A DNA stretch of 64,000 nucleotides from an uncultured Candidatus Saccharibacteria bacterium. Lineage in GTDB: Bacteria; Patescibacteriota; Minisyncoccia; Portnoybacterales; UBA2143. The stretch spans positions 1,750-65,749 of the forward strand of contig CAZQUN010000001.1 of NCBI GenBank assembly GCA_964596615.1, in the 5' to 3' direction. Position 1 is the first letter of the stretch. Each line of letters starts with the position of its first letter. Below are positions 12,541 through 44,585 of this stretch, one piece after another. Made by a program: the position numbers and the translations under genes. Below the pieces are notes generated by a model that was given only the letters and a program-made list of their open reading frames with translations, was not told the DNA's origin and did no database searches.

Positions 12541-12545
12541 AATTC

Positions 12546-14083: not shown

Positions 14084-14126
14084 GGTGATATTGTTCTTCT
14101 AACCACTAAATAAAAGGAGTTCTTTA

Positions 14127-14303
14127 TGATTGGTATCGGGCTAGTCTGTAGAAAGAGAAGGCCTCGGAGAGTCTTTTTGCCGAAAGACAAGAGTAGAGAG
14201 GAAAACACAAAAAATGGACAAGGTCTTCCATTTACCAAAATAAACACAACGCAGAAAAGGCTTCCAGCAAACCGACTTAAAACAGTAGAAAACGACTCCT
14301 AAC
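14127..14303 (+). CDS. Candidate small basic protein (58 aa), or the coding part of a small RNA
   Basis: AAGGAG at 14114-14119 lies 7 nt before the ATG. Product MIGIGLVCRKRRPRRVFLPKDKSREENTKNGQGLPFTKINTTQKRLPANRLKTVENDS. It is below the ORF-track size cutoff, and its 3' end overlaps the convergent GT gene by 5 nt. Confidence 0.3.
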
Positions 14304-17834: not shown

Positions 17835-18638
17835 TCATTGAATTACGTATTCCGGGCCGTGGAATCCTTCCAAAGAAACCGCCGGCATTGGCACCTTATT
17901 TCCCTCAACAAGGTTCAACAAGTTCCTGACTATTTCCTTTTCTGTCTTCCGAGCTAAATCATATCGCAACTTCGCCTCTAAAATTTTCTGTTGCTCCCCA
18001 AAGTACTCCTTGCCGGCCTCTGAGTCAATGACTTTATCCTTTCCCTTAGGCCATTTCTGATTAAATTGTTCGGCCAGTTCGTCATAAATTGATTCCGCCT
18101 TTGCTGTTTCTTCCTCGGCCCCGATTAAAGAGGCATTGATCTTGATAAGCGTCTCTTTAGCTTCTTGATTAAGAGCAAAAGATAGATAATGATAGAATTT
18201 CAGCGCCTCTTTACGACAAGAAAGAAGCATTTTCCCGAAACTTTCCTCTGAGATACCGCCATTAGAAGCAACAGTATGCATTTCTGAAATAAATTTTTCC
18301 ACATTTCGCTCATAAAAACTCAAAAGAACTTCGGGCTTGATTATTTCAGCAAGAACCGCTTCCCTCAATAGGTCTCTGATGTCAGTAGTATAAATACTGA
18401 CCTTGGGATTCTGCTTTTCATATTCGCTATAAGCGACATCTCTAGCATCGTAGTTCAAATAATTAAAGTAGGGTTTGCCGTCATCGTCATAGGAATAGTT
18501 GGATACTACACTAGCCGCCATTTTATAAACAACGGTCTTGGTAATATAGTAATCCAATAAACTCAATGCCAAAGGCCCGCCGCTGAAAAACAAAAAAACT
18601 ACCAAAATTGTTCCGATAATCAAACTTTTCTTTTTCAT
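17835..18638 (-). CDS. Hypothetical secreted or membrane-anchored protein (267 aa)
   Basis: N-terminal signal/anchor (MKKKSLIIGTILVVFLFFSGG); no known motif recognised. Confidence 0.5.
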   Translation of the reverse strand: MKKKSLIIGTILVVFLFFSGGPLALSLLDYYITKTVVYKMAASVVSNYSYDDDGKPYFNYLNYDARDVAYSEYEKQNPKVSIYTTDIRDLLREAVLAEIIKPEVLLSFYERNVEKFISEMHTVASNGGISEESFGKMLLSCRKEALKFYHYLSFALNQEAKETLIKINASLIGAEEETAKAESIYDELAEQFNQKWPKGKDKVIDSEAGKEYFGEQQKILEAKLRYDLARKTEKEIVRNLLNLVEGNKVPMPAVSLEGFHGPEYVIQ

Positions 18639-18757
18639 AATTCTCTTTCCTTTTCTGTTTTTGGGTTAAAATAAAATTGTTAAGGATGCCTTATACTAAC
18701 ACAATAAATAAAATAAGTCAAGGTTGACGGCGCTCGTCTATATTGTATTCTTAAAGT

Positions 18758-29523: not shown

Positions 29524-31179
29524 TTAAGATTTTTCTTCTTTTGATTCCTGATCTGGTCCGATAACTTCCTTTAATTCCTCTCTTAATTCCCCGAGATTAA
29601 CTTCTTTTCTTTCTTTTTTAGGATGAAATGACTGAGCTTCTTGTTTTATTGCTTCTCCTAAAGAAATTTTTTCTTCTGGAGATTGAGCGGTTTTTGGTTC
29701 TTTGGTAATAATAGAAGAGTCTTTGTCTTCTTTTTCTTGTCTAACTTTTTCTAAACACTCCGGACAATAGACCGGTCTAACATTATCTGGTTCAAATTTA
29801 ACTTTTGTTTTTTTACTACACTCAGAACAGACCGCATCATGCAAGGGTTGCCTGGTTTGACTGGCTTTTTTTTCTGTTTCAATTACCTTGCTAACACCGC
29901 TCCATTTAGTAATCTTTTCTTCAACTTCTCTCTGTGAATTGGCATATCTCTCCCTTGAAACATTTACTATTTTCTCCCTCTGGTCAGTAGAGCCAATATC
30001 TATTGGCGGCAGGGTTTTGGCAGAGAAAGGCCGACGATTAACACCATCAATCATTAATCGCAGATAGACACAATAGTTTTCCAGATTAACCAGGTCCTGG
30101 ATATTGAATTCCGGAGAAAATTCTTTCTCCAAGAATTCAGCGTCAGCGGCGCCAACCCGAAACGAAATTAAAGTGCCAACATTGCCAAAAACCGCATCCC
30201 TAACCTTGGTTGTTTGTTCATCTACCAGTTGGCCAATATATTGATGGGCAATAACCAGATTAAGACGATATTTCCTGGCTTCGGATAGAACTCCGGCAAA
30301 AGAATCAGTAGCAAAATTCTGAAACTCGTCAACATACAAATAGAAATCCTTTCTTTGATCTTCCGGAATACGAACTCTTTCCATGGCGGCTAATTGAATT
30401 TTTGTAATGAGCATTGCTCCTAAAAGAGCAGAATTATCTTCTCCGACTCTTCCCTTGGAAACATTGACCAAAAGAATTTTCTTGTCGTCCATAATTTCAG
30501 GAATCCTGATTGTGCTCTTTGACTGGCCAACAATATTACGAATCAGTCCGGTTGAGAGGAATTGCCCAACTTTGTTCTGAATTGGAGCAATGGCTTCATT
30601 CCTGAATTGGTCCCGCCAACTGGCATATTCATTAATCCAAAAGGCCCGGACAACCGGATCTTTAACATTATCAATAATTTTCTGGCGGTAATCCTTGTCA
30701 ACCAGGATCCTTAAAATCCCCAAAAGAGTTGTTCCCTCGGTGTCCAAAAGAGCCAAGACACAGTTATTTAAAATATATTCCATTCGGGCTGACCAGACAT
30801 TAGCCCACATTTTAGTAAAAATACCCATTAGATCAGAAGCGACCAGGTGTTTGTATTTCGGGTCAACAACTTCCAAAACATTAAAGCCAATTGGATATTC
30901 AGTGTCAGCCGGGTTGAAATAGACGACGTCGTTGACCCGATGAGAAGGAATTTTATCAACAACTTCTTCAACAAATTCTCCGTGCGGGTCAACAATACAA
31001 ACCCCATGGCCGTTCTGAATATCCTGAAGGGCCATATTTTTAAGAAGAACGGTTTTACCAACACCGGTCTTACCAATAATATACATGTGCTGGCGTCGGT
31101 CATTCTTCTTAATGCCAAAAGTCTTATCTTCTCCTCGAAAATTAGTCTTGGCAAAAAATGTAATATTATTCTCTTCCAT
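29524..31179 (-). CDS. FtsK/HerA/TraD(VirD4)-superfamily P-loop ATPase with a C-terminal Zn ribbon
   Basis: Walker A IIGKTGVGKT, Walker B LYVDEFQNF, and a VIAHQ sensor-like motif. Has no TM helices of its own. C-terminal CSEC...CPEC ribbon and a charged low-complexity tail. Confidence 0.6.
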   Translation of the reverse strand: MEENNITFFAKTNFRGEDKTFGIKKNDRRQHMYIIGKTGVGKTVLLKNMALQDIQNGHGVCIVDPHGEFVEEVVDKIPSHRVNDVVYFNPADTEYPIGFNVLEVVDPKYKHLVASDLMGIFTKMWANVWSARMEYILNNCVLALLDTEGTTLLGILRILVDKDYRQKIIDNVKDPVVRAFWINEYASWRDQFRNEAIAPIQNKVGQFLSTGLIRNIVGQSKSTIRIPEIMDDKKILLVNVSKGRVGEDNSALLGAMLITKIQLAAMERVRIPEDQRKDFYLYVDEFQNFATDSFAGVLSEARKYRLNLVIAHQYIGQLVDEQTTKVRDAVFGNVGTLISFRVGAADAEFLEKEFSPEFNIQDLVNLENYCVYLRLMIDGVNRRPFSAKTLPPIDIGSTDQREKIVNVSRERYANSQREVEEKITKWSGVSKVIETEKKASQTRQPLHDAVCSECSKKTKVKFEPDNVRPVYCPECLEKVRQEKEDKDSSIITKEPKTAQSPEEKISLGEAIKQEAQSFHPKKERKEVNLGELREELKEVIGPDQESKEEKS

Positions 31180-31180
31180 A

Positions 31181-32560
31181 TTATTCTACAGGTAAATCAA
31201 TTGGCGCTTCACGCTTTCTAGCTTCAACTTTGGGCGCTAACGGCGCTTTAACTGTTTCAATTGGGAAATGATAAATTGTTGCTAATTCTTCAACATTAAA
31301 TGTAAAGGGTTTACTTCTCATAAAAATCCATTTTAGAATCGGCAAACGCTCAAAAAGATGGGGTCTTAGATAAGGGATATTATCCGAATGTTGGACAAAG
31401 TCCCTTTTTTTGTAATCAGCAAAAACTCTTCTGGCCCGATAACTTTCCCTTGGTCCTTTTATTTGAAGCCGGTAATCAATAAAATCGGTTGAGATTTTTG
31501 CGCTGGGCTTAAATCCATTAAGACCCTGGATAGTGAATTGCTTAAAAGAACCAATAACCGTATTGACATTAGGTCTTTGATAGACATCCCTGTCAGCCAG
31601 GTAAATAAATCGGATAATTGTATCAAAGCCAAGTTTAGAAATATTTCTTTCTATGGCGCTAATAGTCTCTTGTTCTCCTTTGGTTGTTGTCCACAAAAAT
31701 GGGGTATCCGTCTTTCCATCCTCCCCGGCTGGAGATTCAAGCGGTTTGCCGGTAACCAATTGATGACCAACCGACTTGGAAGCGTCTTTCCAGGCGACGG
31801 CCTCTTTTTTTACCTCGCCCTGATTTTTTTCTACCTTACGGCCAACTAGTTTATCCCTTAATTCTTCCCCTTTCTTTTGCCAAGTATCGTCAACCGGCCG
31901 GACTAATGTTTGAATCCAAATTTGTTCCCTTGGTCCCATTTTAGACATAATCTCCATTAAAGAAGCGATTGGGTCAATCCGTTGCTCTTCTGAACTAGCT
32001 TCCTTTTCAAATTCAAAGTAGGTTCTAATCGGATAGGCATCTTCTTTGAGTAAAATAAATTCCGTTCCCCAAAGAGTGCGATTTTCATCTGGAAGATCAT
32101 CCGGAACAGAATCAACGTAATCTGCTACCTGGCTAATTTCTGCTTCGGGATACTGGGCGTAAATATTGGACTCAATTAAATTACGAAGTCCAGAGACAGT
32201 TCTGATATAGAAATGGATTTCTCCGCCCAAACTGACCATTTCCATACTAAACCACCTTTGAACTTCTCCTAAAATATTCCTTTCCCACCAGTTTTTCCCG
32301 CCCTGAGCGCCATGTAAGGAACAAAAAAACTGCTCCATAGCCTGAGCGGTCTTTTTAATGTCTTGGGGCGGGATGACTTCTAAAAGAATCCAATCCATTT
32401 CATTGATATAGAGATTTCTTTTCCATCTCAGCCAAAAACCTTTGGTTAAATAAAATAGAAGCAAAGGAAGCCAAATCCACCAAAAGGATAACAAAAACCC
32501 TCCAATAAACAACAGGACACTAATAAGAAGTGAAAAAATTTGAATCAAAAAAGATAGCAT
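31181..32560 (-). CDS. Membrane protein partner of the TraD-like ATPase
   Basis: Two N-terminal TM helices (IFSLLISVLLFIGGFLLSFWWIWLPLLLFYL) and a ~400-aa soluble domain. The stop sits 1 nt before the ATPase start. Confidence 0.5.
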   Translation of the reverse strand: MLSFLIQIFSLLISVLLFIGGFLLSFWWIWLPLLLFYLTKGFWLRWKRNLYINEMDWILLEVIPPQDIKKTAQAMEQFFCSLHGAQGGKNWWERNILGEVQRWFSMEMVSLGGEIHFYIRTVSGLRNLIESNIYAQYPEAEISQVADYVDSVPDDLPDENRTLWGTEFILLKEDAYPIRTYFEFEKEASSEEQRIDPIASLMEIMSKMGPREQIWIQTLVRPVDDTWQKKGEELRDKLVGRKVEKNQGEVKKEAVAWKDASKSVGHQLVTGKPLESPAGEDGKTDTPFLWTTTKGEQETISAIERNISKLGFDTIIRFIYLADRDVYQRPNVNTVIGSFKQFTIQGLNGFKPSAKISTDFIDYRLQIKGPRESYRARRVFADYKKRDFVQHSDNIPYLRPHLFERLPILKWIFMRSKPFTFNVEELATIYHFPIETVKAPLAPKVEARKREAPIDLPVE

Positions 32561-32634
32561 TGATAATTTAATATTACCAAAATTAGAGAATAAGCGCCAG
32601 TAACTAATTTTTAAAAAACAGGTTTAAGTTTACC

Positions 32635-33693
32635 CTATTTTCCAATTAAAACATATTTGCCATCTGAACTCTTGGCAAAATATTTCTTGTTCTGAAGATT
32701 AATTAAAACAGTATTGGTTTTAGCCATTCGGGATTCCAAAACTTTTCCAAGAATTTCTTCCTTGGCCATTGGACCATTTTCTTTTAGGGTCTGGATAATG
32801 ACATCCTTGATTGTCCCGGGCTGATAACCCCATTCTTTAAGAGCGTAAGTCCCCCGGCCAACCAGAATAAAGCGGGGATCTTTAATTAACTCATTATGAA
32901 CGGTCTGGGATTGAGCCAGATTAGAACCAAGATTAGCAACATTAATTAAATCAGAAACTTCTCTGAAATGCAGAGGGCGACCCTGTTCTTTAAGAACGAT
33001 GTAGGCTTTGTCTTTAGCGCCTCGAGGATTAATTTCTGGCCACTTGGAAAGGCCGAAGTAGCCAAAATTATTCTGGCTGATTTGTTTGGTCGCATCAAGA
33101 TAGGAATCCAAAGTCCTCTTATTAATCTTCTTATTCAATTCTTTGGAATAATCCAGAATCTGACTTGAAGAAATTACCTTTTCTCCGTTCTCAATCTTTT
33201 TAACCAAAAAATTAACTAATTTATCAGCCTGATTCAAGGCATCTTTTGAATTAGCCCAAAGAGGATAAAATTTATCTGACTCAACAAAGCGCTGGTAGGG
33301 CTGGCCCAGAGTCAAAGCAAAGTAGACCGCTCCTCTGGCCGGATGAGAAGAATCAGTTCCTGTTAAAGAGGAAAGTAATCTTTCTTCCCTGGCAACTCCG
33401 CCTTCCTGGTTTAAGAAATTATCAACAAAAGAAAAACTTGGCTTTAAAGCATTAATTGATTCTGATCTTTTCAAATCCGAAAAAGCGACTTCTTCTATTT
33501 GACGAACCCGCTCTCTGGTAATGCCATATTTTTGCCCAATCTCTTCTAAGGTCTTTCTTTGTCCGTCTTTAAGACCAAAGCGAAGGGAAATAATATCGCG
33601 TGTTCTTTGGTTTGAAACATTTTTAAGCGCTTCAGAAACCATTTTTTCGTAACTTGTCAGAGTTGTTTTACTCATCACAAAAAAGTTTAACAC
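32635..33693 (-). CDS. Sigma-70 region-4-like HTH protein with an uncharacterised C-terminal domain
   Basis: N-terminal TLEEIGQKYGITRERVRQIEEVAF matches the sigma70 region 4.2 HTH. The remaining ~250 aa has no region 2 or region 3 motifs. Confidence 0.55.
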   Translation of the reverse strand: MLNFFVMSKTTLTSYEKMVSEALKNVSNQRTRDIISLRFGLKDGQRKTLEEIGQKYGITRERVRQIEEVAFSDLKRSESINALKPSFSFVDNFLNQEGGVAREERLLSSLTGTDSSHPARGAVYFALTLGQPYQRFVESDKFYPLWANSKDALNQADKLVNFLVKKIENGEKVISSSQILDYSKELNKKINKRTLDSYLDATKQISQNNFGYFGLSKWPEINPRGAKDKAYIVLKEQGRPLHFREVSDLINVANLGSNLAQSQTVHNELIKDPRFILVGRGTYALKEWGYQPGTIKDVIIQTLKENGPMAKEEILGKVLESRMAKTNTVLINLQNKKYFAKSSDGKYVLIGK

Positions 33694-33715
33694 AATATTT
33701 TTTTCTAGTCAACCC

Positions 33716-34600
33716 CTATTCCCTGTATCTTCTTCCCTGCCATAAAACAATCAAAGGGCTGGTAATGAAGATTGAGGAGTAGGTACCAATAATTATTCCG
33801 ATAATTAGAGCAAGAGAAAAGTATTTAATCGTTTCTCCGCCTAAAAGGAATATCGCCAAGAGAACGAAAAGGGTTGTCAGGGCGGTATTAAGACATCGGC
33901 TAATGCTCTGGTTAATGCTTAAATTAATCGTCTCAGTAAAATCTTTCCAATCGGTCTTTAAAAGGTTCTCTCTCGCCCGGTCAAAGATAACAATACTGTT
34001 ATTAACAGAATAACCCAAAATAGTCAAGAAGGCGGCGACCAAAGGCAGTCCAATTTCAATTTGTTTGATTTCTCCCAGAATTGAGAAAAAGCCGAGGGTA
34101 ATGAAAACATCATGGAATAAAGCAGCAATGGCGACCAGGCCGTACTGCCAGGAAGCAACCGGCTTGGAAACTTTTCTAAAGGCCCAGGCAATATAGATAA
34201 TGATGGCCAAAAGAGCCAAGCCAATTGCCCAAAGAGCTTTTCTTTTCAATTCAGAACCAATAACCGGACCAATTGATTCAAATCTTTCTTCTTCAACCGG
34301 ATTAATCTTTGAAAGAATTTCCTGATGAGTTGCCTCGTCAAGATTTTTTAATCTTAAAATTAATCCATTTTCTCCGGTTGGCTGTAAATTAATTTGTCCT
34401 AAATCCAAATCGTTTAGCTTTTCCTTAATCTGATCATTGGACGGCCTTCCTTCCATAAATTCAACTTCAATTAGACTGCCGCCGGTAAAATCAATTCCTA
34501 ATCTTAATCCAAAAAATATTAAACTCAATAGGCTTCCCAAGATTAAAAGGAGCGAAAATGAAAGATATATTTTTCTGCGTTTAATAATTTCTATTGCCAT
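33716..34600 (-). CDS. secF: Protein translocase subunit SecF
   Basis: 294 aa, six TM helices, SecF periplasmic domain and DFTGGS motif. Confidence 0.85.
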   Translation of the reverse strand: MAIEIIKRRKIYLSFSLLLILGSLLSLIFFGLRLGIDFTGGSLIEVEFMEGRPSNDQIKEKLNDLDLGQINLQPTGENGLILRLKNLDEATHQEILSKINPVEEERFESIGPVIGSELKRKALWAIGLALLAIIIYIAWAFRKVSKPVASWQYGLVAIAALFHDVFITLGFFSILGEIKQIEIGLPLVAAFLTILGYSVNNSIVIFDRARENLLKTDWKDFTETINLSINQSISRCLNTALTTLFVLLAIFLLGGETIKYFSLALIIGIIIGTYSSIFITSPLIVLWQGRRYRE

Positions 34601-36033
34601 ATTTTTCTAACTTCTTCAAATTTAGTCCCAACAAAAACCTTTAAAAAATTCTTAGTGATAACAATAGCAGAGAACATACTCAAAAGAACACCGATTCCCA
34701 GAGTTAGGGCAAATCCTTTAACCAGCCCGGTAGCAAAGATGTAGAGGATCAAGCTGGTAATAATAGTTGAGATGTTGCCGTCGCGAATTGCCGGCCAGGC
34801 CCTTAAAAACCCTTCGTCAATACTACCAGCTAAACTTTTGCCCGATCGAAATTCTTCTTTGAATCTTTCAAAAATTAAAATATTGGCGTCAACCGCCATA
34901 CCAATTGAAAGAATAAAACCGGCAATCCCAGCCAGGGTTAATGTTACCGGAATCAATTTAAAAATAGCCAGAATTAAAACAACATAAACAATTAAAGCCA
35001 AGCTAGCCATTAAACCAGGCAAGCGGTAATAGACAATCATAAAAAGCAGAACAGCGATAAATCCCCAGAGAGCAGCCTGAAGGGATTTGTCCAAAGAAAT
35101 TCTTCCCAAACTAGCTCCGATTGTCTGCTGATTAATCAGATTAATTGGAACAGGCAAAGCGCCGGCATTAAGACGCTGGGCCAGTTCTTTGGCCTCGGCT
35201 AAATTAAAACTGCCTGTAATTTCAGCTTTGCCGCCGGAGATTGCTTCCTGGACAACCGGAACACTAATTGGTGCTCCGTCTAAATAGATTGCTATTCGTT
35301 TGCCAATATTATCTCCGGTTAATTCTTCAAAGATTTTGCCGCCCTCATCATCAAATTCCAGACCAACATGAGCCTGGCCGGTTGTCTGATCAAACTGAAG
35401 CTGAGACCCTTTTAAGAATCTTCCGGTTAATTGAGTTGTTTCAAAAAATGGATCTTGGAGTAAAATTCCTTCTTCTTTTAAGTTTATTTCTTCGCCTCTT
35501 TCCATTTTTTCTCTAATCTCTGTTTGTTTATTTAAAATACCCTCTGCTTCTTCCTGGGATTTCTCTGTTCTGAAATCCAGAGAAGGCGTCTGGCCAATCA
35601 TTTCAATTGCCTGAGAAACATCCTTTATTCCAGCCAATTCAACAATTAAACGATAACTTTCCCCAACCTTATTAACCTGAACAACCGGTTCTGAAACGCC
35701 AAAAAGATTAACCCGCCTTTCAATCACATCCCTGACTCCTTGCATTGAAGCAGAATAATCTTCTGAAGGAATACTGGATAAATCGGCCTCGTAAATTAAA
35801 TGTGTCCCGCCCTGTAAATCAAGGCCCAATTTAAAGGGTCGGTTAAAGAAATTAGGCAGTATCTTTGTTCCGACATATTTATTAACCCAATTAGCTGGTT
35901 TATCCCATAAAGCCGGGGCATCAAAAAAAGCCGCTAAAAGAGCGACGAGGAGGATAAGAAAAATAGCCCCAAGGACTTTTCTGTTTCTTTTGCCTCTTAT
36001 CGGCTTATCTGTCTTTTTTCTAAAAATTCCCAT
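34591..36033 (-). CDS. secD: Protein translocase subunit SecD
   Basis: 480 aa, LGLDLQGG motif, RND-like TM bundle. Overlaps secF by 10 nt. Confidence 0.85.
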   Translation of the reverse strand: MGIFRKKTDKPIRGKRNRKVLGAIFLILLVALLAAFFDAPALWDKPANWVNKYVGTKILPNFFNRPFKLGLDLQGGTHLIYEADLSSIPSEDYSASMQGVRDVIERRVNLFGVSEPVVQVNKVGESYRLIVELAGIKDVSQAIEMIGQTPSLDFRTEKSQEEAEGILNKQTEIREKMERGEEINLKEEGILLQDPFFETTQLTGRFLKGSQLQFDQTTGQAHVGLEFDDEGGKIFEELTGDNIGKRIAIYLDGAPISVPVVQEAISGGKAEITGSFNLAEAKELAQRLNAGALPVPINLINQQTIGASLGRISLDKSLQAALWGFIAVLLFMIVYYRLPGLMASLALIVYVVLILAIFKLIPVTLTLAGIAGFILSIGMAVDANILIFERFKEEFRSGKSLAGSIDEGFLRAWPAIRDGNISTIITSLILYIFATGLVKGFALTLGIGVLLSMFSAIVITKNFLKVFVGTKFEEVRKIWQ

Positions 36034-36054
36034 AATCTTAAACTAACTCATTTA

Positions 36055-36117
36055 TTCATTTTTGTCAAAGAATCTGCTTTCTTTCTTGACAAATTATGTT
36101 CTGTATGATATAATTAT
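36055..36117 (+). repeat. Direct repeat copy 1 (63 nt): promoter and operator region of the secreted-protein cassette
   Basis: Identical 63-nt string TTCATTTTTGTCAAAGAATCTGCTTTCTTTCTTGACAAATTATGTTCTGTATGATATAATTAT recurs at 36641-36703. Confidence 0.9.
36086..36114 (+). promoter_or_regulatory. Consensus promoter TTGACA-17-TATAAT (cassette 1) with a flanking 8-bp inverted repeat
   Basis: TTGACA at 36086-36091, TATAAT at 36109-36114. TTTGTCAA (36061-36068) is the exact reverse complement of TTGACAAA (36086-36093). Confidence 0.6.
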
Positions 36118-36177
36118 GGTATACTATTTCAATGTTCTTAACTTTTTAACCCTAAAATCAGAAAGAGGAGGATTGAA

Positions 36178-36567
36178 ATGAAAAAAGTTCTTTTTATCAG
36201 TTTGGGTATCGCCCTGGTTCTGACCGTTGTTTCCGTTGCTGTAACAGAGGAAGAGGAAACAGCTTCTTCTTTAATTTTTATTATTGAGGGTGCTGAGCTC
36301 TCAGGAGTAGATAAACAGAACACCGTTGATTGGATAACGTCCGGACATAACATATACCCAAAACTTATTAAATTGGTCCGGATCCAGGTTGACTACCTGG
36401 TCCGCGTAAAAATCGTGGACCATGACGGCAAAGAATACTCCGTCCGGCAAATCTGGTCAAGTAGTGTCCCGGTGGCAAACGCAACCCTTTCAGCTGTCGT
36501 CGACACTTTGGTGAAACGAAATGAGGAGTTGAGCCAGATCGTCACCGGAAGTGGCGGAATGCACTAA
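36178..36567 (+). CDS. Small secreted protein A (129 aa, signal peptide)
   Basis: AGAGGAGG lies 6 nt before the ATG. Signal peptide MKKVLFISLGIALVLTVVSVAV, then an acidic stretch EEEE. Confidence 0.6.
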   Translation: MKKVLFISLGIALVLTVVSVAVTEEEETASSLIFIIEGAELSGVDKQNTVDWITSGHNIYPKLIKLVRIQVDYLVRVKIVDHDGKEYSVRQIWSSSVPVANATLSAVVDTLVKRNEELSQIVTGSGGMH

Positions 36568-36587
36568 TGCACCCGCTCCAAAACAAC

Positions 36588-36627
36588 AAGGCCTGTTCAA
36601 AAAGCCGACAGGTCTTGTTTTTTTATA
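36588..36627 (+). terminator. Rho-independent terminator of cassette 1
   Basis: AAGGCCTGT-loop-ACAGGTCTT (9 bp with one G-U), then GTTTTTTTAT. Confidence 0.6.
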
Positions 36628-36640
36628 AAAATAATTTCTT

Positions 36641-36703
36641 TTCATTTTTGTCAAAGAATCTGCTTTCTTTCTTGACAAATTATGTTCTGTATGATATAAT
36701 TAT
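36641..36703 (+). repeat. Direct repeat copy 2 (63 nt, identical to copy 1)
   Basis: See copy 1. The similarity continues with divergence through the 5' UTR (TTTTAACCCTAAAA...AAGGAGGATGAAATG). Confidence 0.9.
36672..36700 (+). promoter_or_regulatory. Consensus promoter TTGACA-17-TATAAT (cassette 2)
   Basis: TTGACA at 36672-36677, TATAAT at 36695-36700, same inverted-repeat context as cassette 1. Confidence 0.6.
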
Positions 36704-36755
36704 AGCAAGTTATTTTAACAATTTTAACCCTAAAACAAGCAAGAAGGAGGATGAA

Positions 36756-37454
36756 ATGAGAACAAAAGGATTAGTTTTAGTCGTAGTCGCCCTGGTTGTT
36801 GTTGGATGTGTGTCTAACAAGCAGATCCGGACCGAGCCCGAGTTGGTGGCTCGGATTGATGTTAATAACAAGTGGCAGAATGTCATAGGGTTTGGGCCAG
36901 TTGGTGTCCATTACAAGCAAAAGTTCCTAGGAATTGCCTCTTGGAAGAACGGAAAGATAAATGTACAAAGAACTAAGGGCATTGTACGTTCGACCCTTAG
37001 TAAAAATATTGTGTATTTATCACTCCCGGAAGACGACCCGGAAATAGGGCGATTGCGGATCAGAGTTGAATACAAGCAGGGAAATCTTTGGTTCCGACTT
37101 GGCCCATATCATATTTTTCTCGAAAGCTGGGAAAGAGAAGTCCGTAATGGTTCGGCTGTAGAGCTGATCGTCGGTGAGACTTATTTTCTACCGGGTCTGG
37201 GCTACAAAATCCGGAGAACAAACAAGATCTTCTACGACAAAGAAGGAGCTTATGACAAGGACATAGAAATACACGACGGCTTTTCTTGGAGGCCTATCCC
37301 TGACTATATCGGTAAATACGGCGCTTACTTCATCGGCCATTACACGTGGACACTGGGGATCGCGGGCATGGATCTGAACAAGGATAAGAAAGAGGATGTT
37401 GCCAGGGTTTTCCTCTTTAGAGCAGATCCATCCCTGGAACAAAAATTACGGTAG
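36756..37454 (+). CDS. Secreted lipoprotein B (233 aa)
   Basis: AAGGAGG lies 5 nt before ATG 36756. Signal peptide with an LVVVGC lipobox (MRTKGLVLVVVALVVVGCVSN). The ORF-track start at 36567 is upstream of the promoter and unlikely. Confidence 0.6.
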   Translation: MRTKGLVLVVVALVVVGCVSNKQIRTEPELVARIDVNNKWQNVIGFGPVGVHYKQKFLGIASWKNGKINVQRTKGIVRSTLSKNIVYLSLPEDDPEIGRLRIRVEYKQGNLWFRLGPYHIFLESWEREVRNGSAVELIVGETYFLPGLGYKIRRTNKIFYDKEGAYDKDIEIHDGFSWRPIPDYIGKYGAYFIGHYTWTLGIAGMDLNKDKKEDVARVFLFRADPSLEQKLR

Positions 37455-37475
37455 TCAAACAAGAAGCAAAACAAC

Positions 37476-37506
37476 AAGGCCCGTTCAACACGAACGGGTC
37501 TTTTCT
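37476..37506 (+). terminator. Rho-independent terminator of cassette 2, a paralog of the cassette-1 terminator
   Basis: AAGGCCCGTTC-aacac-GAACGGGTCTT followed by TTTTCT. It is preceded by the same CAAAACAACAAGGCC lead-in as cassette 1. Confidence 0.55.
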
Positions 37507-37843
37507 ATTCCGTAAAAACTTTCTCTTTTTTTAGTTCTTCTAAAATATCTTCCGGAATAGGGATTTCCTGGCCAATTGGACTAATTCCCGGGTAGCGCCA
37601 GGCAGAAATCATTTTCTTTTTTTTATTTACCTGTTGATACATCAACCAAATTTCACTTGGTTTTTTTGTTCCGGCAGGCTGCATCAAAGCAATTGTTTCC
37701 GGAGCAATTCCCTCTTCCTTTCTTTTGAAACTTTTCAAAACCCGGCGAAGCCGTCCTTCACCCAAACCATAATAGCGCATCTTTCTTTTAATATGATTAG
37801 TCCAGTAAAATTCTTTTGTATTCTCGGGCTCTTTGTAAAACAT
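37505..37843 (-). CDS. Hypothetical protein (112 aa)
   Basis: Intact ORF with no recognised motif; its stop abuts the cassette-2 terminator. Confidence 0.4.
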   Translation of the reverse strand: MFYKEPENTKEFYWTNHIKRKMRYYGLGEGRLRRVLKSFKRKEEGIAPETIALMQPAGTKKPSEIWLMYQQVNKKKKMISAWRYPGISPIGQEIPIPEDILEELKKEKVFTE

Positions 37844-37846
37844 AGG

Positions 37847-38425
37847 TTAATTCCGTAAGGTCTTTTTGATACATCTTCTTATCGACAATAATCTCTTTTT
37901 TTCGAAATCGGGATGGTCTTTAAACCACTTTATATTGACCGGCGAGGGATGAGGTAAGACAAATGTTCGCGTTTTATTTAATTCCTGGTCAGCAAAAATT
38001 AGGTCTGTAAATGCCTGTTTGGGAAAGAAAAATTCTGCAGCAATCCTTCCAACCACAAGGTATAACCGAGGGTTTAAATAAGATATCTCTCGCCTGAGCC
38101 AACGGTTTGCCAAATGAAATGACGGTTTTTTATCTCCGCCCTTTTTGTCTTTGCCGGGAAAATACATACCGACTGCCGTAAAATAGAAATTATCAGGATT
38201 ATAGAATGCTTCATCAGAAACTCTATACCACTCGCTCCTTAATCTCTTGCCGCTTTTATCTGAAAAAGGTTTTTGATTCTTGATTGCAGACATTGAAGGA
38301 GCTTGGCTTATTGAAACAATCTTGGCTTCTTGGTTGCCCCAAAAAGAACCAGCCAATTGCCCGAATTCTTTTTTAAAAGACAATCTCATTTTATTTCTAA
38401 ATTTAACAAATTCCCTATTTCCCAT
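37847..38425 (-). CDS. Uracil-DNA glycosylase superfamily protein (divergent)
   Basis: C-terminal LPHPSPVN matches the HPSP motif-B of UDG families 4-6. The N-terminal motif A is GNQEA instead of GEGPG. Confidence 0.55.
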   Translation of the reverse strand: MGNREFVKFRNKMRLSFKKEFGQLAGSFWGNQEAKIVSISQAPSMSAIKNQKPFSDKSGKRLRSEWYRVSDEAFYNPDNFYFTAVGMYFPGKDKKGGDKKPSFHLANRWLRREISYLNPRLYLVVGRIAAEFFFPKQAFTDLIFADQELNKTRTFVLPHPSPVNIKWFKDHPDFEKKRLLSIRRCIKKTLRN

Positions 38426-38456
38426 GGTATTTTTGACATTTTTTATCTAAACCACA

Positions 38457-38855
38457 TTAATGACCCACGTATGCCAAACACTTTTCTACTTTTCTTTCTT
38501 TAAACACGTGGTATCGAGCGTATCCATCGAAAATCAGTAAATCAGAACCTCGAAGTATTAAAGGAGGAATTGGTTTGTCTTGAGAGTTTAATTTTTGCTG
38601 CTCTTTGATTCTTGGCAAAAGGTCTTTCTGAAATTTTTCCGTTTTAAGCATTTCGTAATTCGGTTTAATTTTCCTCACCTCAATTACCTCTAAACTCCAT
38701 TCGGATTTATATAAATCATCTCCATATTTCAAAAAATCGTCTCCGCTCCATTCCTTGTTAGCAATCTCTACCACATAATCTTTTATTTTATCCTCGCTTA
38801 CTAAGCAATATCTAATTCCGTTCAATTTTTTTTCTTTTTTAAAAGATATTTTCAT
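38457..38855 (-). CDS. Hypothetical protein (132 aa)
   Basis: Start set at the internal Met (MKISFKK), 4 nt after the secA stop. The longer ORF-track version would overlap secA coding sequence. Confidence 0.4.
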   Translation of the reverse strand: MKISFKKEKKLNGIRYCLVSEDKIKDYVVEIANKEWSGDDFLKYGDDLYKSEWSLEVIEVRKIKPNYEMLKTEKFQKDLLPRIKEQQKLNSQDKPIPPLILRGSDLLIFDGYARYHVFKERKVEKCLAYVGH

Positions 38856-38859
38856 ATGT

Positions 38860-41247
38860 TTATTTATTCCCACAACACCTTTTATACTTCTTCCCCGAGC
38901 CACATGGACAGGGAGAATTTCGACCAACCTTGTTCTTGTCTTGAACTTTTGGGCTATGCTGATGATGCTCATGGTGATGTTGCCCGGCCGGAGCCAATCC
39001 GACCTGATAAATCATTTTAACTGCTGTTGCCTCAATCGAACCAAGTAATTGCTGGAATAATCTCATTCCTTCATTTTTGTATTCAATCAAAGGGTCTTTC
39101 TGGCCATAGGCCCGCAAACGAACGCTATCCCTTAAATGATCCATATTATCCAAATGGTCCATCCATAAGATATCAACACTTCGAAGCAGAACAAACTTTT
39201 CTGCCTGTCGCATATTTTCTTTTCCCAATTCCTCTTCTTTTTTTTGATAAGTTTCAAGCATTTCTTTTTCTTTTCCTTTTGCCTGTTCTTCGATCATTTC
39301 TATTATTTCTTTTTTAAGGTCTTCTTTTTCTAGAATCTCTCTTCGTCTTTTGTAAATTGTTTCTCTTTGTTTATTCAAAACATCATCATATTCCAAAACA
39401 TGTTTTCTCATATCAAAATGGTGGCCTTCAATTTTTGACTGAGCTGATTCAATTGCTTTTGAAACTAATTTGTTTTCTATGGGCTGGTCATCAGGAACCC
39501 TTAATGTTTCCATTAATGATTTAACCCGGTCACCGCCAAAAATTCGCATCAAATCATCTTCCAATGAAACAAAGAACTGACTTGAACCAGGATCGCCCTG
39601 CCTGCCGGAACGACCGCGCAACTGGTTATCAATCCTTCTGGCTTCATGACGCTCTGTTCCGATAACATGAAGGCCGCCTAATTGAACGACTCCTTCGCCC
39701 AAAACAATATCAACTCCCCGACCAGCCATATTAGTCGCAACTGTGACTGCGCCTTTTTGCCCGGCCCGAGAAATGATTTTGGCTTCTTGTTCATGATTCT
39801 TGGCATTTAGAATCTGGTGAGTAATTCCTTCTTTTTGAAGATATTTGGAAAGAAGTTCATTTTTTTCAATTGAAACTGTTCCGACTAAAACCGGCTGTCC
39901 TTTTTGATATCTTTGTTTAATCTCTTTAACCAATGCCTCGATTTTACCTTTTTCATTTTTGTAAATACTGTCGGGCAAATCTTTCCTCACCATCTCCTTG
40001 TTGGTCGGAATGACAATAACATCCAAGTTATAGACCTTATGGAATTCTTCGGCTGAAGTCAAGGCTGTTCCGGTCATACCAGCCAATTTGGGATACATTC
40101 TGAAATAGTTCTGGAAAGTGATTGAAGCCAAGGTCCGGCTTTCATGCTGGACATTAACTTTTTCTTTGGCTTCCAGGGCCTGATGAAGCCCGTCAGAATA
40201 TCTTCGACCCGGCATTAACCGACCGGTAAATTCATCGACAATTATGACCTGGCCGTCTTTAACAACATAATCCTTGTCTTTTTTGAAAACAATTTCTGCT
40301 CTTAGGGCCTGTTCCAAATGATGGACATAGCGAATTCCCTGCTGGTAAATATTATCCATGCCTAATATTTTTTCTACCTTGTTAATCCCTTCTTCGGTCA
40401 AAGTAACGGCCTTGGCTTTTTCATCTAGATTGTAATCAGCGCTTTCTTTTAGCTTGGGAACAATCGCAGAAAACTGCTGATACATTTTGGTTGATTCAAC
40501 ATCGGGCATGGAGATTATTAAAGGAGTCCTGGCTTCATCAATTAAAATACTATCAACTTCGTCAATGATGGCGAAATGGGGTTTTCTTTGGACCATTACT
40601 TCCAAAGAAGGAGCCATATTATCTCTCAAATAGTCAAAGCCGAATTCATTATTGGTTCCGTACAAAATATCGGCAGCATAAGCTTCTTTTCTTGAAACTT
40701 CTTTCAGGTTTTCCATTTCAACGCTGACTTCTTCTCCGTCCGGTTTTGTTTCGGGAGAAAACAAATATGATTTTTCATGATTAAGGCAGGCGCAAGTCAG
40801 TCCGAGCAAATGATAAATTGGACCCATCCAATTGGCATCTCTTCGGGATAAATAGTCATTAACGGTGATAATATGAACACCATTGCCTGATAGGGCGTTT
40901 AAATAAACTGAAAGAGTCGCGGCTAAAGTTTTTCCTTCGCCGGTTTTCATTTCAGCAATTTTTCCTTGATGAAGAGTGATTCCGCCGATTAATTGAGAAT
41001 CAAAATGCCGCTGGCCAATGGTTCGTTTAGCCGCTTCTCTGATTAAAGCAAAAGCCTCGGGCAGAATATCATCTAAAGTTTTTCCATTTTTTAATTCCTC
41101 TTTGAAACTCTTGGTTTTTTCTTTCAATTTTTCACTAGAAAAAGACTCGAACTGGGGTTCGAGTTGATTTACCTTTTCAACCAATGACTCCATCTTTTTT
41201 AGTTCCTTCTCATTAGCATTACCAAGGAATTTATTTAATATGGACAT
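38860..41247 (-). CDS. secA: Preprotein translocase ATPase SecA
   Basis: 795 aa; DEAD-like motor motifs ([29 protein letters not shown]), C-terminal zinc tail [14 protein letters not shown]. Confidence 0.9.
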
Positions 41248-41290
41248 GGTAATATTCTAGGATAAAACAAAGAAAAAATCAACCAACAAC

Positions 41291-41313
41291 AAAAAGCAGC
41301 AATGCTGCTTTTT
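41291..41313 (-). terminator. Bidirectional-looking terminator hairpin (A5-GCAGCA...TGCTGC-T5)
   Basis: AAAAAGCAGCAATGCTGCTTTTT lies between the secA start region and hpf. Confidence 0.5.
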
Positions 41314-41349
41314 ATACTAGCAAGTGAAATTGGAATCTATTATCAAAAA

Positions 41350-41475
41350 CTATTTCTTCTTCTTTCTCCGAACGACTCTTTTCTTGGTTGTTTTTTTTCT
41401 CTTAGCAACTTTTCTCTTTTTTGGAACAGCTTTCTTTACTTTTTTAGCTATTTTCTTCCTAAGTTTTTTTAACAT
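41350..41475 (-). CDS. Candidate 41-aa extremely Lys/Arg-rich small protein between hpf and its terminator
   Basis: The minus-strand ORF encodes MLKKLRKKIAKKVKKAVPKKRKVAKRKKTTKKRVVRRKKKK. No SD is evident. It is flanked by the hpf stop and the terminator at 41291-41313. Confidence 0.25.
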   Translation of the reverse strand: MLKKLRKKIAKKVKKAVPKKRKVAKRKKTTKKRVVRRKKKK

Positions 41476-41526
41476 TTTTTTGTATTTATTAATATATGGA
41501 CAAACCGACCTCCCATTTATCCATCA

Positions 41527-41940
41527 CTATTTCCTCCTAAGAATTTTATTAACCTTCGAACCGCGGAAACGCGCCAGAGGGCTAACCTGCCAGAATTTTT
41601 TCCAGGAACGAGCTCCTCTAATATATTTAGTCGCTTCCTTTTCTTTGTAATGCTTTATTTCTCTGGCTAATTCATCCCTGACTAAGTCAATTGCCGCGTT
41701 TAAGGACTCTTCTGTTTTTTCAGCCCGGATCATATGTCCGTTCAAACCTAAATTAACTTCGGTTAAATAAATATCTCCTTTCCTTTGTCCGCGAGTAACC
41801 ATTCCAACCTCAACCCTGGCCTCAACTAAATTAGGATCAAATTTTCTTAAAAACTTCTCCAAGCCGCCAATCTTTTCCTCGATGTATTGTTTAATGCTTG
41901 GAGATAATTGAATATTGGTTGCTTTAATGACTATCTTCAT
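41527..41940 (-). CDS. hpf: Ribosome hibernation promoting factor / RaiA (S30AE family)
   Basis: 137 aa; S30AE pattern (MKIVIKATNIQLSPSIKQYIEEKIGGLEKF...VEARVEV...). Confidence 0.8.
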   Translation of the reverse strand: MKIVIKATNIQLSPSIKQYIEEKIGGLEKFLRKFDPNLVEARVEVGMVTRGQRKGDIYLTEVNLGLNGHMIRAEKTEESLNAAIDLVRDELAREIKHYKEKEATKYIRGARSWKKFWQVSPLARFRGSKVNKILRRK

Positions 41941-41962
41941 ATTTCTATTCTAGCATAGAAAA

Positions 41963-42817
41963 TTAAAATCCCAAATACTCAATTTCTTCTTCTAATTCTA
42001 TTTGATATTTTTCTTTGATTGTTTCCTTGATTAAATCAATCAATTTAATTACATCTTTGGCCTTGGCGTTGTTAGAGTTGATAATGAAATTAGCGTGTTT
42101 CTGAGATACAACTGCTCCGCCAATCTTTTTACCTTTCAGGCCAGCTTGATCAATGAGGCGGCCAGCTGGAACTGTGTTGTCCCAACAAACAATATCTCTA
42201 GGAATTAACTTCTCTGCTTTTGCTTCGGATTCCGCAATTTTTGTATTTTTGAAAATACACCCCGGGCAAAATTCCCCAATCGGCTGAGTCTGTTTTCTTT
42301 TTTTAATAATTTCCTTAATTAATTTTCTGCTTTCTTTTTGCTTTCCTTTTTCTAATTCTAATTCAACTGAGAGAATAATATTATCTTTTTTTTCTGTCTT
42401 TTTAACTAAATTCTTCATTTCTCCGCCAAAGCAAGAAGCATTAACTTTAACCGCCCCGCCGATTGTTCCCGGAATGCCAATTGCCCATTCCAATCCGGCC
42501 AAACTATTCTCAACTGAAAAATTAACTAAATCACTTAATCTTGCTCCGGCTTCTGATATAATCCTATTGCCCTTAATTGAGTAATTTCTGTTTTCGGTTT
42601 TAATGACTAATCCATTAAATCCCTTATCGCTGATTAAAAGATTACTCCCGCCGCCGAGAATAAAAAAAGGCAGGTTTTCTTTTTTAGCAAAATCAACTGC
42701 CTTAATCAAATCCTGACTGTTTTTAATAACAAAGAAATATTTAGCTGGCCCGCCAATCCTAAAAGTCGTATAGGGCGCTAGCAAAACATTCTTTTGGAAA
42801 TTATTGATACATAACAT
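41963..42817 (-). CDS. murB: UDP-N-acetylenolpyruvoylglucosamine reductase
   Basis: FAD-binding-4 N-domain (APYTTFRIGGPA...ILGGGSNLL) and MurB C-domain. The start is set at MLCINNF; the ORF-track start would overlap the upstream gene by ~60 nt. Confidence 0.85.
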   Translation of the reverse strand: MLCINNFQKNVLLAPYTTFRIGGPAKYFFVIKNSQDLIKAVDFAKKENLPFFILGGGSNLLISDKGFNGLVIKTENRNYSIKGNRIISEAGARLSDLVNFSVENSLAGLEWAIGIPGTIGGAVKVNASCFGGEMKNLVKKTEKKDNIILSVELELEKGKQKESRKLIKEIIKKRKQTQPIGEFCPGCIFKNTKIAESEAKAEKLIPRDIVCWDNTVPAGRLIDQAGLKGKKIGGAVVSQKHANFIINSNNAKAKDVIKLIDLIKETIKEKYQIELEEEIEYLGF

Positions 42818-44585
42818 CGGCGCCAGTGGTGTAATAGCCAACTTCCCAATCATTGACAACATAGACCATATCCCATTTATGGCCAGTCAGAGCAAATTCT
42901 TCAGCAGTCATATTAAGCCAATGCTTTGTTCCATCAGCGTTTAATTCGTAGACCTTAGTACCACTTACTCCTCTAATCATCCATGATTCCGTATATTGAT
43001 TCAAAACAGACTGGTCAATATCAATAATATCTTCCCATTTCAAATGGCCGTAGCGATTGAAAAGTTCGGCCGTTTGTATCCATCTTTTGTAATTGCCTTT
43101 GACAATATAGACCTTGTAGCCGCCTTTGGCTCTGATTAGACTGCCGTCTGGGTAAATAACCGAAGGATTGTTTTCGGAAGAACCTTCTTCTGGAGAATCT
43201 GATTCTTCCGGAACCAAATCATTTGAAATACTTGAGGCGGTAAAAGAGAAAAGAGTAAAAGGATCACTGCTCTTAAAATCACTTTCTTTGAACTGGTTAA
43301 TTGGAATAAGAGTAACGGTTTTGTCTGAGCTGGTGAAGTTGGGGATATAGGCTATTCCCTTTTTATCTTCCAAGGAAAGAGTTTTAACCGTCGTGTTACT
43401 ATACTGGTCAGTAATAATATATGGAACGCTGAAATTACTCCGGTACTGGTCAGCCGAAGCATCAAATTCCAGTTTCAAGGCATCGTTTTCAGTTGGAACA
43501 GTTCCATTCTGCCTGAACCGATACCAGCGAGGCGACCAATCTTTAACCGAACTGCTCCGAGAAACAATCAGACCGGGAAAGCCGCTGTAACTGGCAGAAT
43601 AGTTAACTTTCAATCTTTGAGGGGTCAGGTTTTTATTTAGATAGCAATACTGGCCGCTGTCAATTTGGCAATTATTCAGATAATTAGCTATTGCCCAGTC
43701 AGTAAAAACATCAGAAAATGTTTTTGAATAACCCAAGCTCGACAGGGCAAAATTAATGCTTTCTATCCCAGTCTTGCCGCTCAAAATCGTTCGGGTTAAA
43801 ACTTCTTGGCCGTAATGGTCAACTAGATAGTGTACAAACAGGTTAATTGCTCCGTAATCAGGAACATTGTTTTTCCATTCAGCCAAGGGCTCTGTTGGAT
43901 AATCTAGAAAAGTGTCAACCCGGTCAGCCAAATAACTGTTGTTATAACTCTCACTATACCCACAGACTGTTGGCGCATATTCAGACCGGGCTTCATTCAG
44001 CCAAATATCATCTTCAATACCATGAACAATTGTTTTCTGATAAAAACTGATTAAGTGTTGGAATTCATGGGCAATAAGGGCTTTGTTTTTTGAGCTAAAA
44101 ACATTAACAGCATTGAAATAGATCATTTCCCTTTCATTGGAACTGGCAATTTCCGAACGAGAATACTCATCATAGGTGTTAAAATAGCCACCAGCGTCAC
44201 TAACTAATTCAGTCGCCAAAATGGTGATCCGACTGTCATCATCAATGCCCGGATTCCACTCTGAACCATAGACCGCCCTCAATTTAGGGTAAATAATATT
44301 GTCGAATTCATCAGCCAGAATTTCAAGTTCTTCCCTGATAGCATTTTTGTATGTTCCATTTAATTTCTGGTAATAGTCGTCTTCTAAATAAAAGTAGGCG
44401 TGTTCGCCGATAGCCTTCATGGTCGCCGTAATCTGGGCTCGACCGGAAACATCATAGGTCGAATCAACAAAAAAAGTTTTCTGATCATTAAGATTATCAG
44501 CCAGAGCCAGAGAAGGAAAAACAAAAAATCCTCCTAGAATAAAGAGACCGAAAACTCCAAATTTTAAGTTAATTCTGTAACTCAT
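42801..44585 (-). CDS. Secreted HEXXH zinc-metallopeptidase-like protein with a C-terminal beta-rich domain
   Basis: Signal peptide (FGVFGLFILGGFFVFPSLALA), HEXXH motif (LIAHEFQHLIS), 594 aa. Confidence 0.5.
   Translation of the reverse strand: MSYRINLKFGVFGLFILGGFFVFPSLALADNLNDQKTFFVDSTYDVSGRAQITATMKAIGEHAYFYLEDDYYQKLNGTYKNAIREELEILADEFDNIIYPKLRAVYGSEWNPGIDDDSRITILATELVSDAGGYFNTYDEYSRSEIASSNEREMIYFNAVNVFSSKNKALIAHEFQHLISFYQKTIVHGIEDDIWLNEARSEYAPTVCGYSESYNNSYLADRVDTFLDYPTEPLAEWKNNVPDYGAINLFVHYLVDHYGQEVLTRTILSGKTGIESINFALSSLGYSKTFSDVFTDWAIANYLNNCQIDSGQYCYLNKNLTPQRLKVNYSASYSGFPGLIVSRSSSVKDWSPRWYRFRQNGTVPTENDALKLEFDASADQYRSNFSVPYIITDQYSNTTVKTLSLEDKKGIAYIPNFTSSDKTVTLIPINQFKESDFKSSDPFTLFSFTASSISNDLVPEESDSPEEGSSENNPSVIYPDGSLIRAKGGYKVYIVKGNYKRWIQTAELFNRYGHLKWEDIIDIDQSVLNQYTESWMIRGVSGTKVYELNADGTKHWLNMTAEEFALTGHKWDMVYVVNDWEVGYYTTGADVMYQ

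Follow-up and report, generated by a model that had tools for sequence, protein, structure and literature searches.

How do two adjacent genes come to share promoter, leader, start of the signal peptide and terminator when the mature proteins they encode have nothing in common? The question is raised by a pair of cassettes at positions 36055–37506 of a 64,000-nucleotide (nt) stretch of DNA, the whole of which was analysed and is referred to here as the window, from an uncultured Candidatus Saccharibacteria bacterium placed by GTDB in Portnoybacterales (assembly GCA_964596615.1, contig CAZQUN010000001.1). The two open reading frames (ORF1 and ORF2) lie on the plus strand between the promoter of secD and a conserved gene for a protein of 112 amino acids (aa). 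The answer we favour, with moderate confidence, is that the pair is a recombination-driven cargo-exchange locus for exported accessory proteins, situated, in Candidatus Portnoybacteria, between the 112-aa gene and the promoter of secD. It appears to be a small hotspot where recombination replaces one surface or secreted protein with another, and there is nothing fundamentally new about it. The anatomy of the units, the limits of their homology, the orphan status and atypical composition of their proteins and the comparative pattern among relatives are all directly observed.

Each unit begins with a block of 63 nt, which a preliminary description of this DNA had reported to be identical in both. 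A pattern search located precisely two copies on the plus strand, at 36055–36117 and 36641–36703, which agree at 63/63 positions without a mismatch; none beyond these two was found within the 64-kb window, where the expected number is 0 and shuffled sequences contain none. A repeat search extends the direct repeat to 36055–36142 versus 36641–36728, and the 5′ scaffold homology overall amounts to 81.5% over 130 nt (36055–36184 versus 36641–36762). The right end of copy 1 falls ~4 nt short of the predicted transcription start site (~36121). The perfect TTGACA-17-TATAAT promoter described earlier is present in both copies, where each site matches the consensus at 12/12 positions and carries a TG one base upstream of the −10 element. 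By motif both are predicted sigma-70 promoters with an extended −10: that of ORF1 (36086–36114) consists of TTGACA, a 17-nt spacer and TGaTATAAT, and that of ORF2 (36672–36700) has its −35 at 36672–36677 and TGaTATAAT at 36692–36700. Block copy 1 holds, besides the full ORF1 promoter, the −35 of secD on the minus strand. A viral scan with the promoter core returned 0 matches. Promoters matching the consensus at 12/12 positions number three in the window, two of them in the blocks. The third, TTGACA-17-TGaTATAAT at 12137, has a spacer unrelated to that of the block, and spacer identity is therefore presumably not needed for promoter function.

Similarity was said to continue through the 5′ untranslated region (UTR) and the Shine–Dalgarno (SD) sequence into the signal peptides, and it does. 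The two plus-strand UTRs (36118–36177 for ORF1 and 36704–36755 for ORF2) are identical in 42 of 61 aligned columns (69%), including the 14-mer TTTTAACCCTAAAA at 36144–36157 and 36722–36735; the SD sequence AGGAGG (36166–36171 and 36745–36750) sits 5–6 nt ahead of each ATG; and within the coding regions a 12-mer signal-peptide patch, (A/G)TCGCCCTGGTT, is 11/12 identical at offset +30 to +41, in the same frame and at codons 11–14. Past this patch nothing in the coding regions aligns. The 5′UTRs have no significant RNA fold (z −0.8 for that of ORF1). In a rule-based reading, which asked for an AXA-type site or a [LVI][ASTVI][GAS]C lipobox, both ORFs have a predicted Sec or lipoprotein signal peptide with a basic n-region, a hydrophobic h-region and a cleavage site or lipobox. 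ORF1 starts with MKK, continues with a 17-residue hydrophobic stretch and has a type I-like site between SVA and V (MKKVLFISLGIALVLTVVSVA, then V), while ORF2 starts with MRTK, followed by a hydrophobic stretch and a lipobox cleaved between VVG and C (MRTKGLVLVVVALVVVG, then C). It is from such motifs that we infer promoter activity and export, and the strong expression proposed in the preliminary description would likewise be a prediction from consensus motifs.

A leader of similar appearance occurs elsewhere in the window. In the stretch 17835–18740 (minus strand), the gene for an orphan signal-peptide protein of 267 aa has the leader TTAACAATTTTATTTTAACCCAAAAAC ~19 nt ahead of its ATG, which resembles that of unit 2, and the motif TTTTAACCC(T/A)AAAA occurs three times in the window versus 0.2 expected. 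The region upstream of this gene, which itself occupies 17835–18638, shows 63–65% identity to the scaffold over about 100 nt, with an E value of about 1e-3 to 6e-3; it is treated as a lead and not counted as a member. This leader could be an older relative of the scaffold or a common leader motif of exported-protein genes.

The 3′ ends of the units are also alike. As had been noticed, a matching lead-in and a terminator hairpin follow each stop: CAAAACAACAAGGCC is found exactly twice in the window, once 3′ of each stop codon, and extends to CAAAACAACAAGGCC(T/C)GTTCAA with 21/22 identity, and the terminators as wholes are 74% identical over 65 nt. Terminator 1 (36579–36625) comprises the A-tract CAAAACAACAAGG, a hairpin at 36588–36616 and a T7 tract; it folds at −18.5 kcal/mol, with z-scores of −3.2 for the plus and −2.2 for the minus strand. 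Terminator 2 (37467–37510) has the same A-tract and an 11-bp hairpin at 37476–37502 (z −5.1 and −3.4, respectively). It is placed 3 nt past the stop codon (37505) of the 112-aa gene, which converges on it, and is common to that gene and unit 2. Both hairpins are thus stable, and in form both elements are predicted bidirectional intrinsic terminators, with A-tract, GC-rich hairpin and T-tract. A special role for the lead-in is not supported. The terminator scan detects both terminators on the minus strand as well, with tails TTGTTGTTTT, and CAAAACAACAAGG is therefore best read as the A-tract that gives bidirectionality. Such predicted bidirectionality is useful at terminator 2; the A-tract of terminator 1, with no convergent gene to serve, is apparently a passenger.

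Between these shared ends the two coding regions are entirely different. ORF1 (36178–36567, plus strand) encodes a 129-aa orphan with an N-terminal signal peptide or anchor, and ORF2 (36756–37454 including the stop, plus strand) a 232-aa orphan, a predicted lipoprotein by its lipobox VVGC. Of the earlier portrayal as a 129-aa acidic secreted protein and a 233-aa lipoprotein, the length and signal peptide of the first and the lipoprotein prediction for the second stand; ORF1 is only mildly acidic, with a mature isoelectric point (pI) of 5.1, and ORF2 is 232 aa long. Mature ORF2 is basic (pI 9.4). The claim that the mature proteins differ completely is upheld by BLASTP, blastn and tblastx, which find no similarity between them at the level of DNA, six-frame translation or protein, and the coding cores, of 390 nt and 696 nt, differ two-fold in length. 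Both ORFs read as coding in the annotated frame, which is the preferred one, with low codon-usage scores. The NCBI version of ORF2 (P0001) has 295 aa, starts at an ATG at 36567 that overlaps the stop of ORF1, and reads through terminator 1 and promoter 2; from the layout of the sequence, ATG 36756 behind AGGAGG is the far more plausible start.

Neither protein has recognizable relatives. A word-seeded search of 5.8 billion proteins returned self-matches only for both ORFs, and nothing was found for them in Pfam, PHROGs, NCBIfam, PDB sequences, phage and plasmid tblastn searches or IMG/VR. A full HMMER search of ORF2 against 1.8 billion representatives gave the self-match and one other protein (P0003), which was rejected as a homologue: it is a 2659-aa cadherin/Big_9 repeat protein whose score adds up from 12 weak matches of 34 aa each, a case of repeat inflation. 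The composition of the two cargo genes is atypical. Their G+C content at third codon positions (GC3) is 0.50 in each, compared with 0.34–0.37 in neighbouring genes and 0.29–0.41 in the 35 long genes of the window, and a raised cargo GC3 is seen also in two related loci, L101 (0.26 versus 0.17) and L048 (0.42 versus 0.34).

Relatives that carry the same site show how far the scaffold extends and where it ends. In L101/L102, whose SecD is 79% identical to that of the window, secA, an orthologue of the 112-aa gene (114 aa), a single 113-aa gene on the opposite strand and secD follow one another. Over 159 nt of promoter and UTR this gene shares 72% identity with unit 1, its first 21 coding nt are identical to those of ORF1, and the first nine residues, MKKVLFISL, are shared; its terminator has the same form of A-tract, hairpin and T-tract-ATAAA. 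Its mature protein, rich in K, R and E, is unrelated. L019 (SecD 80%) has a 100-aa signal-peptide protein behind TTGACA-17-TGcTTTAAT, L048 a 178-aa protein with a ...LAC motif and a promoter equal to that of the window at 27/32 positions, and L029 a truncated remnant of 24 codons. The cassette is absent from L020 (SecD 81%), L105/L106 (74%) and at least ten metagenome loci, and in relatives without it the 112-aa gene, of which orthologues exist in L020, L101, L105 and most metagenome loci, abuts the secD promoter directly. On these comparisons, the site between the 112-aa gene and the secD promoter is a putative lineage-wide hotspot, with a scaffold that appears homologous across lineages and cargo that does not. 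A second two-unit array was not found in about 100 related loci.

Insertions of another kind have gathered at the same position. In L021, L024, L027, L030 and L055, unrelated GC-rich palindromic or hairpin inserts lie between the secD −35 and the upstream gene; they reinforce the notion of an insertion hotspot, or the site simply gathers terminators.

The block contains a further element, a perfect 8-nt inverted repeat TTTGTCAA-N17-TTGACAAA. Both copies have this repeat, which overlaps the −35 and had been taken for an operator. A dimeric regulator acting there might jointly control both cassettes and secD, and the same arrangement with 17-nt spacing in L019 would agree with this. The left arm, however, is the −35 of secD (TTGACA, 36063–36068, minus strand), which is followed by a predicted −10 (TAGTTT, 36040–36045, minus strand) located 6 nt ahead of the secD ATG and outside the duplicated block, to give TTGACA-17-TAGTTT-6-ATG without an SD. 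Of 25 relatives, 23 have TTGACA on the secD strand, and 22 of these also show a TAnnnT of the TA(G/A)ATT type exactly 17 nt on, with the ATG in most a further 6–9 nt away and the SD absent. This promoter sequence is kept in genomes that have no divergent gene and no right arm (L020, L105, L022, L023, L025 and L031–L040), and the left arm is therefore identified as part of the secD promoter. Among cassette carriers the spacing between the two −35 arms is 17 nt in the window, 17 in L019, 20 in L101, 19 in L029 and 9 in L048, which argues against an operator of fixed geometry. No regulator gene is adjacent. When the GTDB representative genomes were scanned with the pattern TTTGTCAA-N17-TTGACAAA-N12-TGATATAAT, 17 loci (L001–L017) were obtained, mostly from Ruminococcus, Oscillospiraceae and other Clostridia, both isolates and metagenome-assembled genomes (MAGs), with no relatives among them. 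Many of these have ATTATA about 17 nt upstream and are clearly back-to-back consensus promoters with −35s 17 nt apart; they precede tRNAs, riboswitch-like leaders and various genes. The apparent operator is thus two −35 hexamers placed back to back, and a regulator-binding function for it is very unlikely. The secD promoter itself is probably conserved across the lineage, to judge from its motifs, and since secD has no SD and its −10 lies 6 nt from the ATG, the secDF mRNA is probably leaderless.

The position of the block relative to this promoter bears on the history of the pair. The block starts between the −35 and the −10 of secD, so that copy 2 retains an orphan −35 (36649–36654, minus strand) with TTTTTA at the −10 position, and copy 2 therefore appears to derive from a copy adjacent to secD.

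A repeat of this kind in a metagenome-assembled contig could also be a false duplication or a chimeric join at a short repeat, and the preliminary description had itself named an assembly artefact as what would overturn it. Independent Logan assemblies match the sequence on both sides with zero mismatches: L018 (SRR24302413) corresponds to window positions 31766–36084, L107 (SRR24302413) to 36674–43644 and L108 (SRR8146440) to 36674–39245. These contigs end exactly 30 nt inside the outer edges of block copy 1 (36084) and copy 2 (36674), which is k−1 for a de Bruijn graph with k=31 and therefore marks a true branch at the repeat in independent data from two runs. The units, moreover, differ outside the block, and hence are no simple duplicated contig end. 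The exact proteins are known solely from one NCBI contig, of 163,635 nt, and exact look-ups of ORF1, ORF2 and P0001 yielded no contig record. The Logan contigs recovered lack the internal ORF1 segment, so that it is the NCBI contig which gives the order of the units. On balance the repeat is taken as real, and an artefact is highly improbable.

If the favoured reading is correct, each unit would be a monocistronic export frame composed of a sigma-70 extended −10 promoter, a leader of ~55 nt with AGGAGG, a Sec signal (of the signal peptidase I type in ORF1, with a lipobox in ORF2) and a bidirectional terminator. The description of the units as modular and autonomous fits this well, as each has its own consensus promoter, strong SD, export signal and terminator, in the same orientation. 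Descent of the two scaffolds from a common one is supported by the alignments, which also mark the cargo as apparently unrelated. The ancestor would have been a single cassette, in which secD and the cargo gene diverged from back-to-back promoters and the cargo gene was followed by a terminator and the convergent 112-aa gene. Tandem duplication of the frame would then have created the internal terminator–promoter junction (36579–36703), with the orphan secD −35 and an A-tract without a convergent gene as passengers; together, these two passengers mark the junction as having arisen, in this reading, through duplication of one ancestral cassette. Subsequently, recombination with the conserved ends as anchors would have put non-homologous sequence in place of the coding cores; the left anchor would be the promoter, UTR and signal-peptide region and the right anchor the terminator and the downstream gene. 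The step in identity from 100% in the block to 69% in the UTR and then to background is best explained by a crossover where the block ends on its right, possibly through allelic replacement of unit 2 by that of a diverged relative, or by a recent gene-conversion tract. The products would be strain-specific exported or surface proteins, and the part in host interaction suggested for them earlier is speculative. Both the recombination pathway and the biological role are what we infer from this arrangement.

The preliminary description had left open whether cargo was swapped or had diversified rapidly, and the evidence favours swapping over diversification. Plain tandem duplication followed by runaway divergence of the mature proteins, under diversifying selection or relaxed constraint, while purifying selection held the regulatory DNA and the signal peptide, would account for the tandem same-orientation layout, the shared ends, the signal-peptide patch at the same codon offset and the GC3 of 0.50 in both cargoes. 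It would also account for the weak co-linear alignment of ORF1 with the L019 protein (25% over 88 aa, E 0.014 in a five-sequence database). It is nevertheless unlikely, because the UTR and the terminator tail, which are largely unconstrained, retain 69–74% identity, and an erasure of coding similarity down to background in DNA and every frame should have hit these flanks too; together with the two-fold difference in length of the cores, this argues for core replacement over gradual divergence. A block identical at 63/63 positions beside a UTR at 69% requires a second event anyway. An import of the pair, or of unit 2, ready-made from a related Portnoybacterium in which this locus likewise adjoins secD would dispense with duplication and exchange in situ. 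The atypical GC3 of both cargoes is in keeping with this, as are the patchy presence of the cassette, which L020 lacks and the no closer L101 and L019 possess, and the orphan secD −35 in copy 2, by which the block originated beside a secD gene. The failure to find a donor or another two-unit array in the related loci weighs against it, as does the complete identity of the blocks set beside about 72% to the closest relative, by which at least the promoter copy is recent and was made within this genome; we regard import, which along with divergence is the main rival to exchange, as quite improbable.

Cargo exchange has difficulties of its own. The units are only two here and one in each relative, a thin basis for speaking of an exchange system, and as protein, phage and plasmid searches found no donor for either ORF, replacement is deduced from the absence of similarity. 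The L019 cargo shows no shift in GC3. Because its protein aligns co-linearly with ORF1, some cargoes may be very diverged homologues and not replacements. Single-sequence AlphaFold2 models of the two proteins have a predicted local distance difference test score (pLDDT) of 37 and 40 and are unusable, and the two may yet share a fold. All of these points weigh against the exchange of cargo.

Comparable architectures are known in other bacteria, and the closest analogy is with the vsp and vpma genes of Mycoplasma, in which the 5′UTR and the signal-peptide coding sequence are highly conserved and the remaining coding sequence has no significant homology (PMC2268961). The present locus has the same combination of conserved 5′UTR and signal peptide with unrelated mature regions, and vsp of M. 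bovis and vpma of M. agalactiae likewise encode exported surface lipoproteins of a small-genome, host-dependent bacterium. In the mycoplasmas, however, Xer-type inversion moves a single promoter, whereas here each unit has its own promoter in the same orientation and no recombinase is encoded within about 12 kb. There are here neither repetitive mature domains nor a slippage homopolymer, only ORF2 has a lipobox, the members number two and there is no sequence homology. In Borrelia burgdorferi, the Erp/Elp paralogues, a family with an "upstream homology box", are grouped by a shared OspE/F-like leader peptide (PMC12242104, citing Akins et al. 1999, PMC96492), with OspE-related, OspF-related and Elp subfamilies of mature protein, and the Erp genes are carried on cp32 prophage plasmids (PMC12018966). 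The likeness, by architecture alone, lies in shared upstream DNA and leader peptide with non-homologous mature proteins. Erp genes also share upstream promoter DNA, recombination among the paralogues has been invoked, and they have defined operator-binding proteins. The present locus, by contrast, is chromosomal and adjacent to secD, shows no sign of phage or plasmid, has had its operator reading rejected and has no sequence relation to Erp/Elp (no Pfam or NCBIfam match).

In the lpl cluster of Staphylococcus aureus, homologous recombination shuffles the variable parts of the genes (Tsuru and Kobayashi 2008; PMC2568036). The internal terminator–promoter–signal-peptide junction of the present pair (36579–36800) is the same kind of unit, but the genes of the lpl cluster are genuine paralogues, each ORF having a conserved region at its centre for recombination, while here the cores are unrelated and the anchors would be regulatory DNA. 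Integrons resemble the locus in that units of one orientation follow each other at a single genomic site and carry unrelated cargo, often orphans; their cassettes, however, are promoterless, bounded by attC and mobilized by IntI, and here each unit has its own promoter and terminator. An integron array was rejected, there being no integrase nearby, no attC-like imperfect palindromes besides the terminators, and a consensus promoter in each unit. A diversity-generating retroelement was likewise rejected, as the only repeats in 35500–38000 are the scaffold ends and no reverse transcriptase occurs among the scanned neighbours. A miniature inverted-repeat transposable element or insertion sequence was tried and rejected, and so was a phase-variable switch, for which recombinase, invertible promoter, repeats and slippage tracts are all lacking. 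No description of such a locus in Patescibacteria was found in the literature searched.

The surroundings are those of a chromosomal housekeeping region (secA, secDF, alaS, murB), without matches to phages or plasmids in PHROGs, phage and plasmid tblastn searches or IMG/VR. The pair is the sole plus-strand coding sequence between about 21.7 and 44.6 kb, within a long minus-strand run. The divergent neighbour secD (34591–36033, minus strand), whose promoter overlaps block copy 1, has Pfam SecD domains in the identical protein P0004, and its product is 79–81% identical to SecD of Candidatus Portnoybacteria/Patescibacteria MAGs. Next on the secD side are secF, a sigma70_r4/HARE-HTH protein, a TrwB/DUF87 ATPase and alaS. 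On the opposite side stand the 112-aa gene (37505–37843, minus strand, stop codon 37505–37507), conserved, with no function assigned and forming the right edge of the insertion site, and then a UDG-family gene, a 171-aa hypothetical gene, secA, a ribosome hibernation factor gene and murB. No recombinase, transposase or integrase gene lies within about 12 kb of the pair, TRF is negative for tandem repeats over 35900–37700, and the longest homopolymers at the locus are A6 and T7, the T7 runs being terminator tails. Across the 64-kb window there are zero matches to Rfam families or tRNAs.

Three further features of the window are recorded here. A conserved Portnoybacteria gene string lies 3′ of secDF (29524–33693), is syntenic in L019, L020, L103 and L105, and includes the sigma70_r4/HARE-HTH protein, a DUF8128 protein and a TrwB/DUF87/TraG-like ATPase with a treble-clef zinc finger. 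Two small plus-strand islands interrupt the minus-strand stretch elsewhere. In one (12137–12590), the third perfect promoter is followed by tiny ORFs for membrane peptides, one of about 63 aa that starts at ATG 12240 and one of 33 aa (12439–12540), and then by a terminator. Another (13764–14302) consists of an 80-aa ORF (13764–14006), a terminator, a TTGACA-16-TAAAAT promoter at 14056 and a 58-aa basic ORF.

The locus is a modest addition, in an understudied phylum, to an evolutionary pattern that is already known, and it would be of local interest only if it were merely a duplicated orphan pair. As by-products, the analysis yields a probable leaderless conserved promoter for secD and a corrected start for the 295-aa NCBI protein, and it provides an example of apparent "operator" and "lead-in" motifs that proved, on closer reading, to be passengers in promoter and terminator regions of bidirectional type. 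Members of the candidate phyla radiation (CPR)/Patescibacteria are thought to live attached to other microbes, and their contact proteins are mostly orphans. A conserved frame at a fixed landmark upstream of secD would be a cheap means of pulling strain-variable exported proteins from thousands of MAGs, and would let recombination-driven cargo exchange be tested against divergence. A bolder and rather unlikely proposal is that the frame acts as a recombinase-free "expression socket", whose short conserved ends serve as anchors for homologous recombination. With it Portnoybacteria, and perhaps further members of the CPR, would take up unrelated ORFs, possibly newly arisen or of foreign origin, and would duplicate and exchange them. 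If that were true, a captured ORF would at once be highly transcribed, translated and exported, and ultra-small episymbionts would have a simple route to a fast-changing repertoire of surface and secreted proteins.

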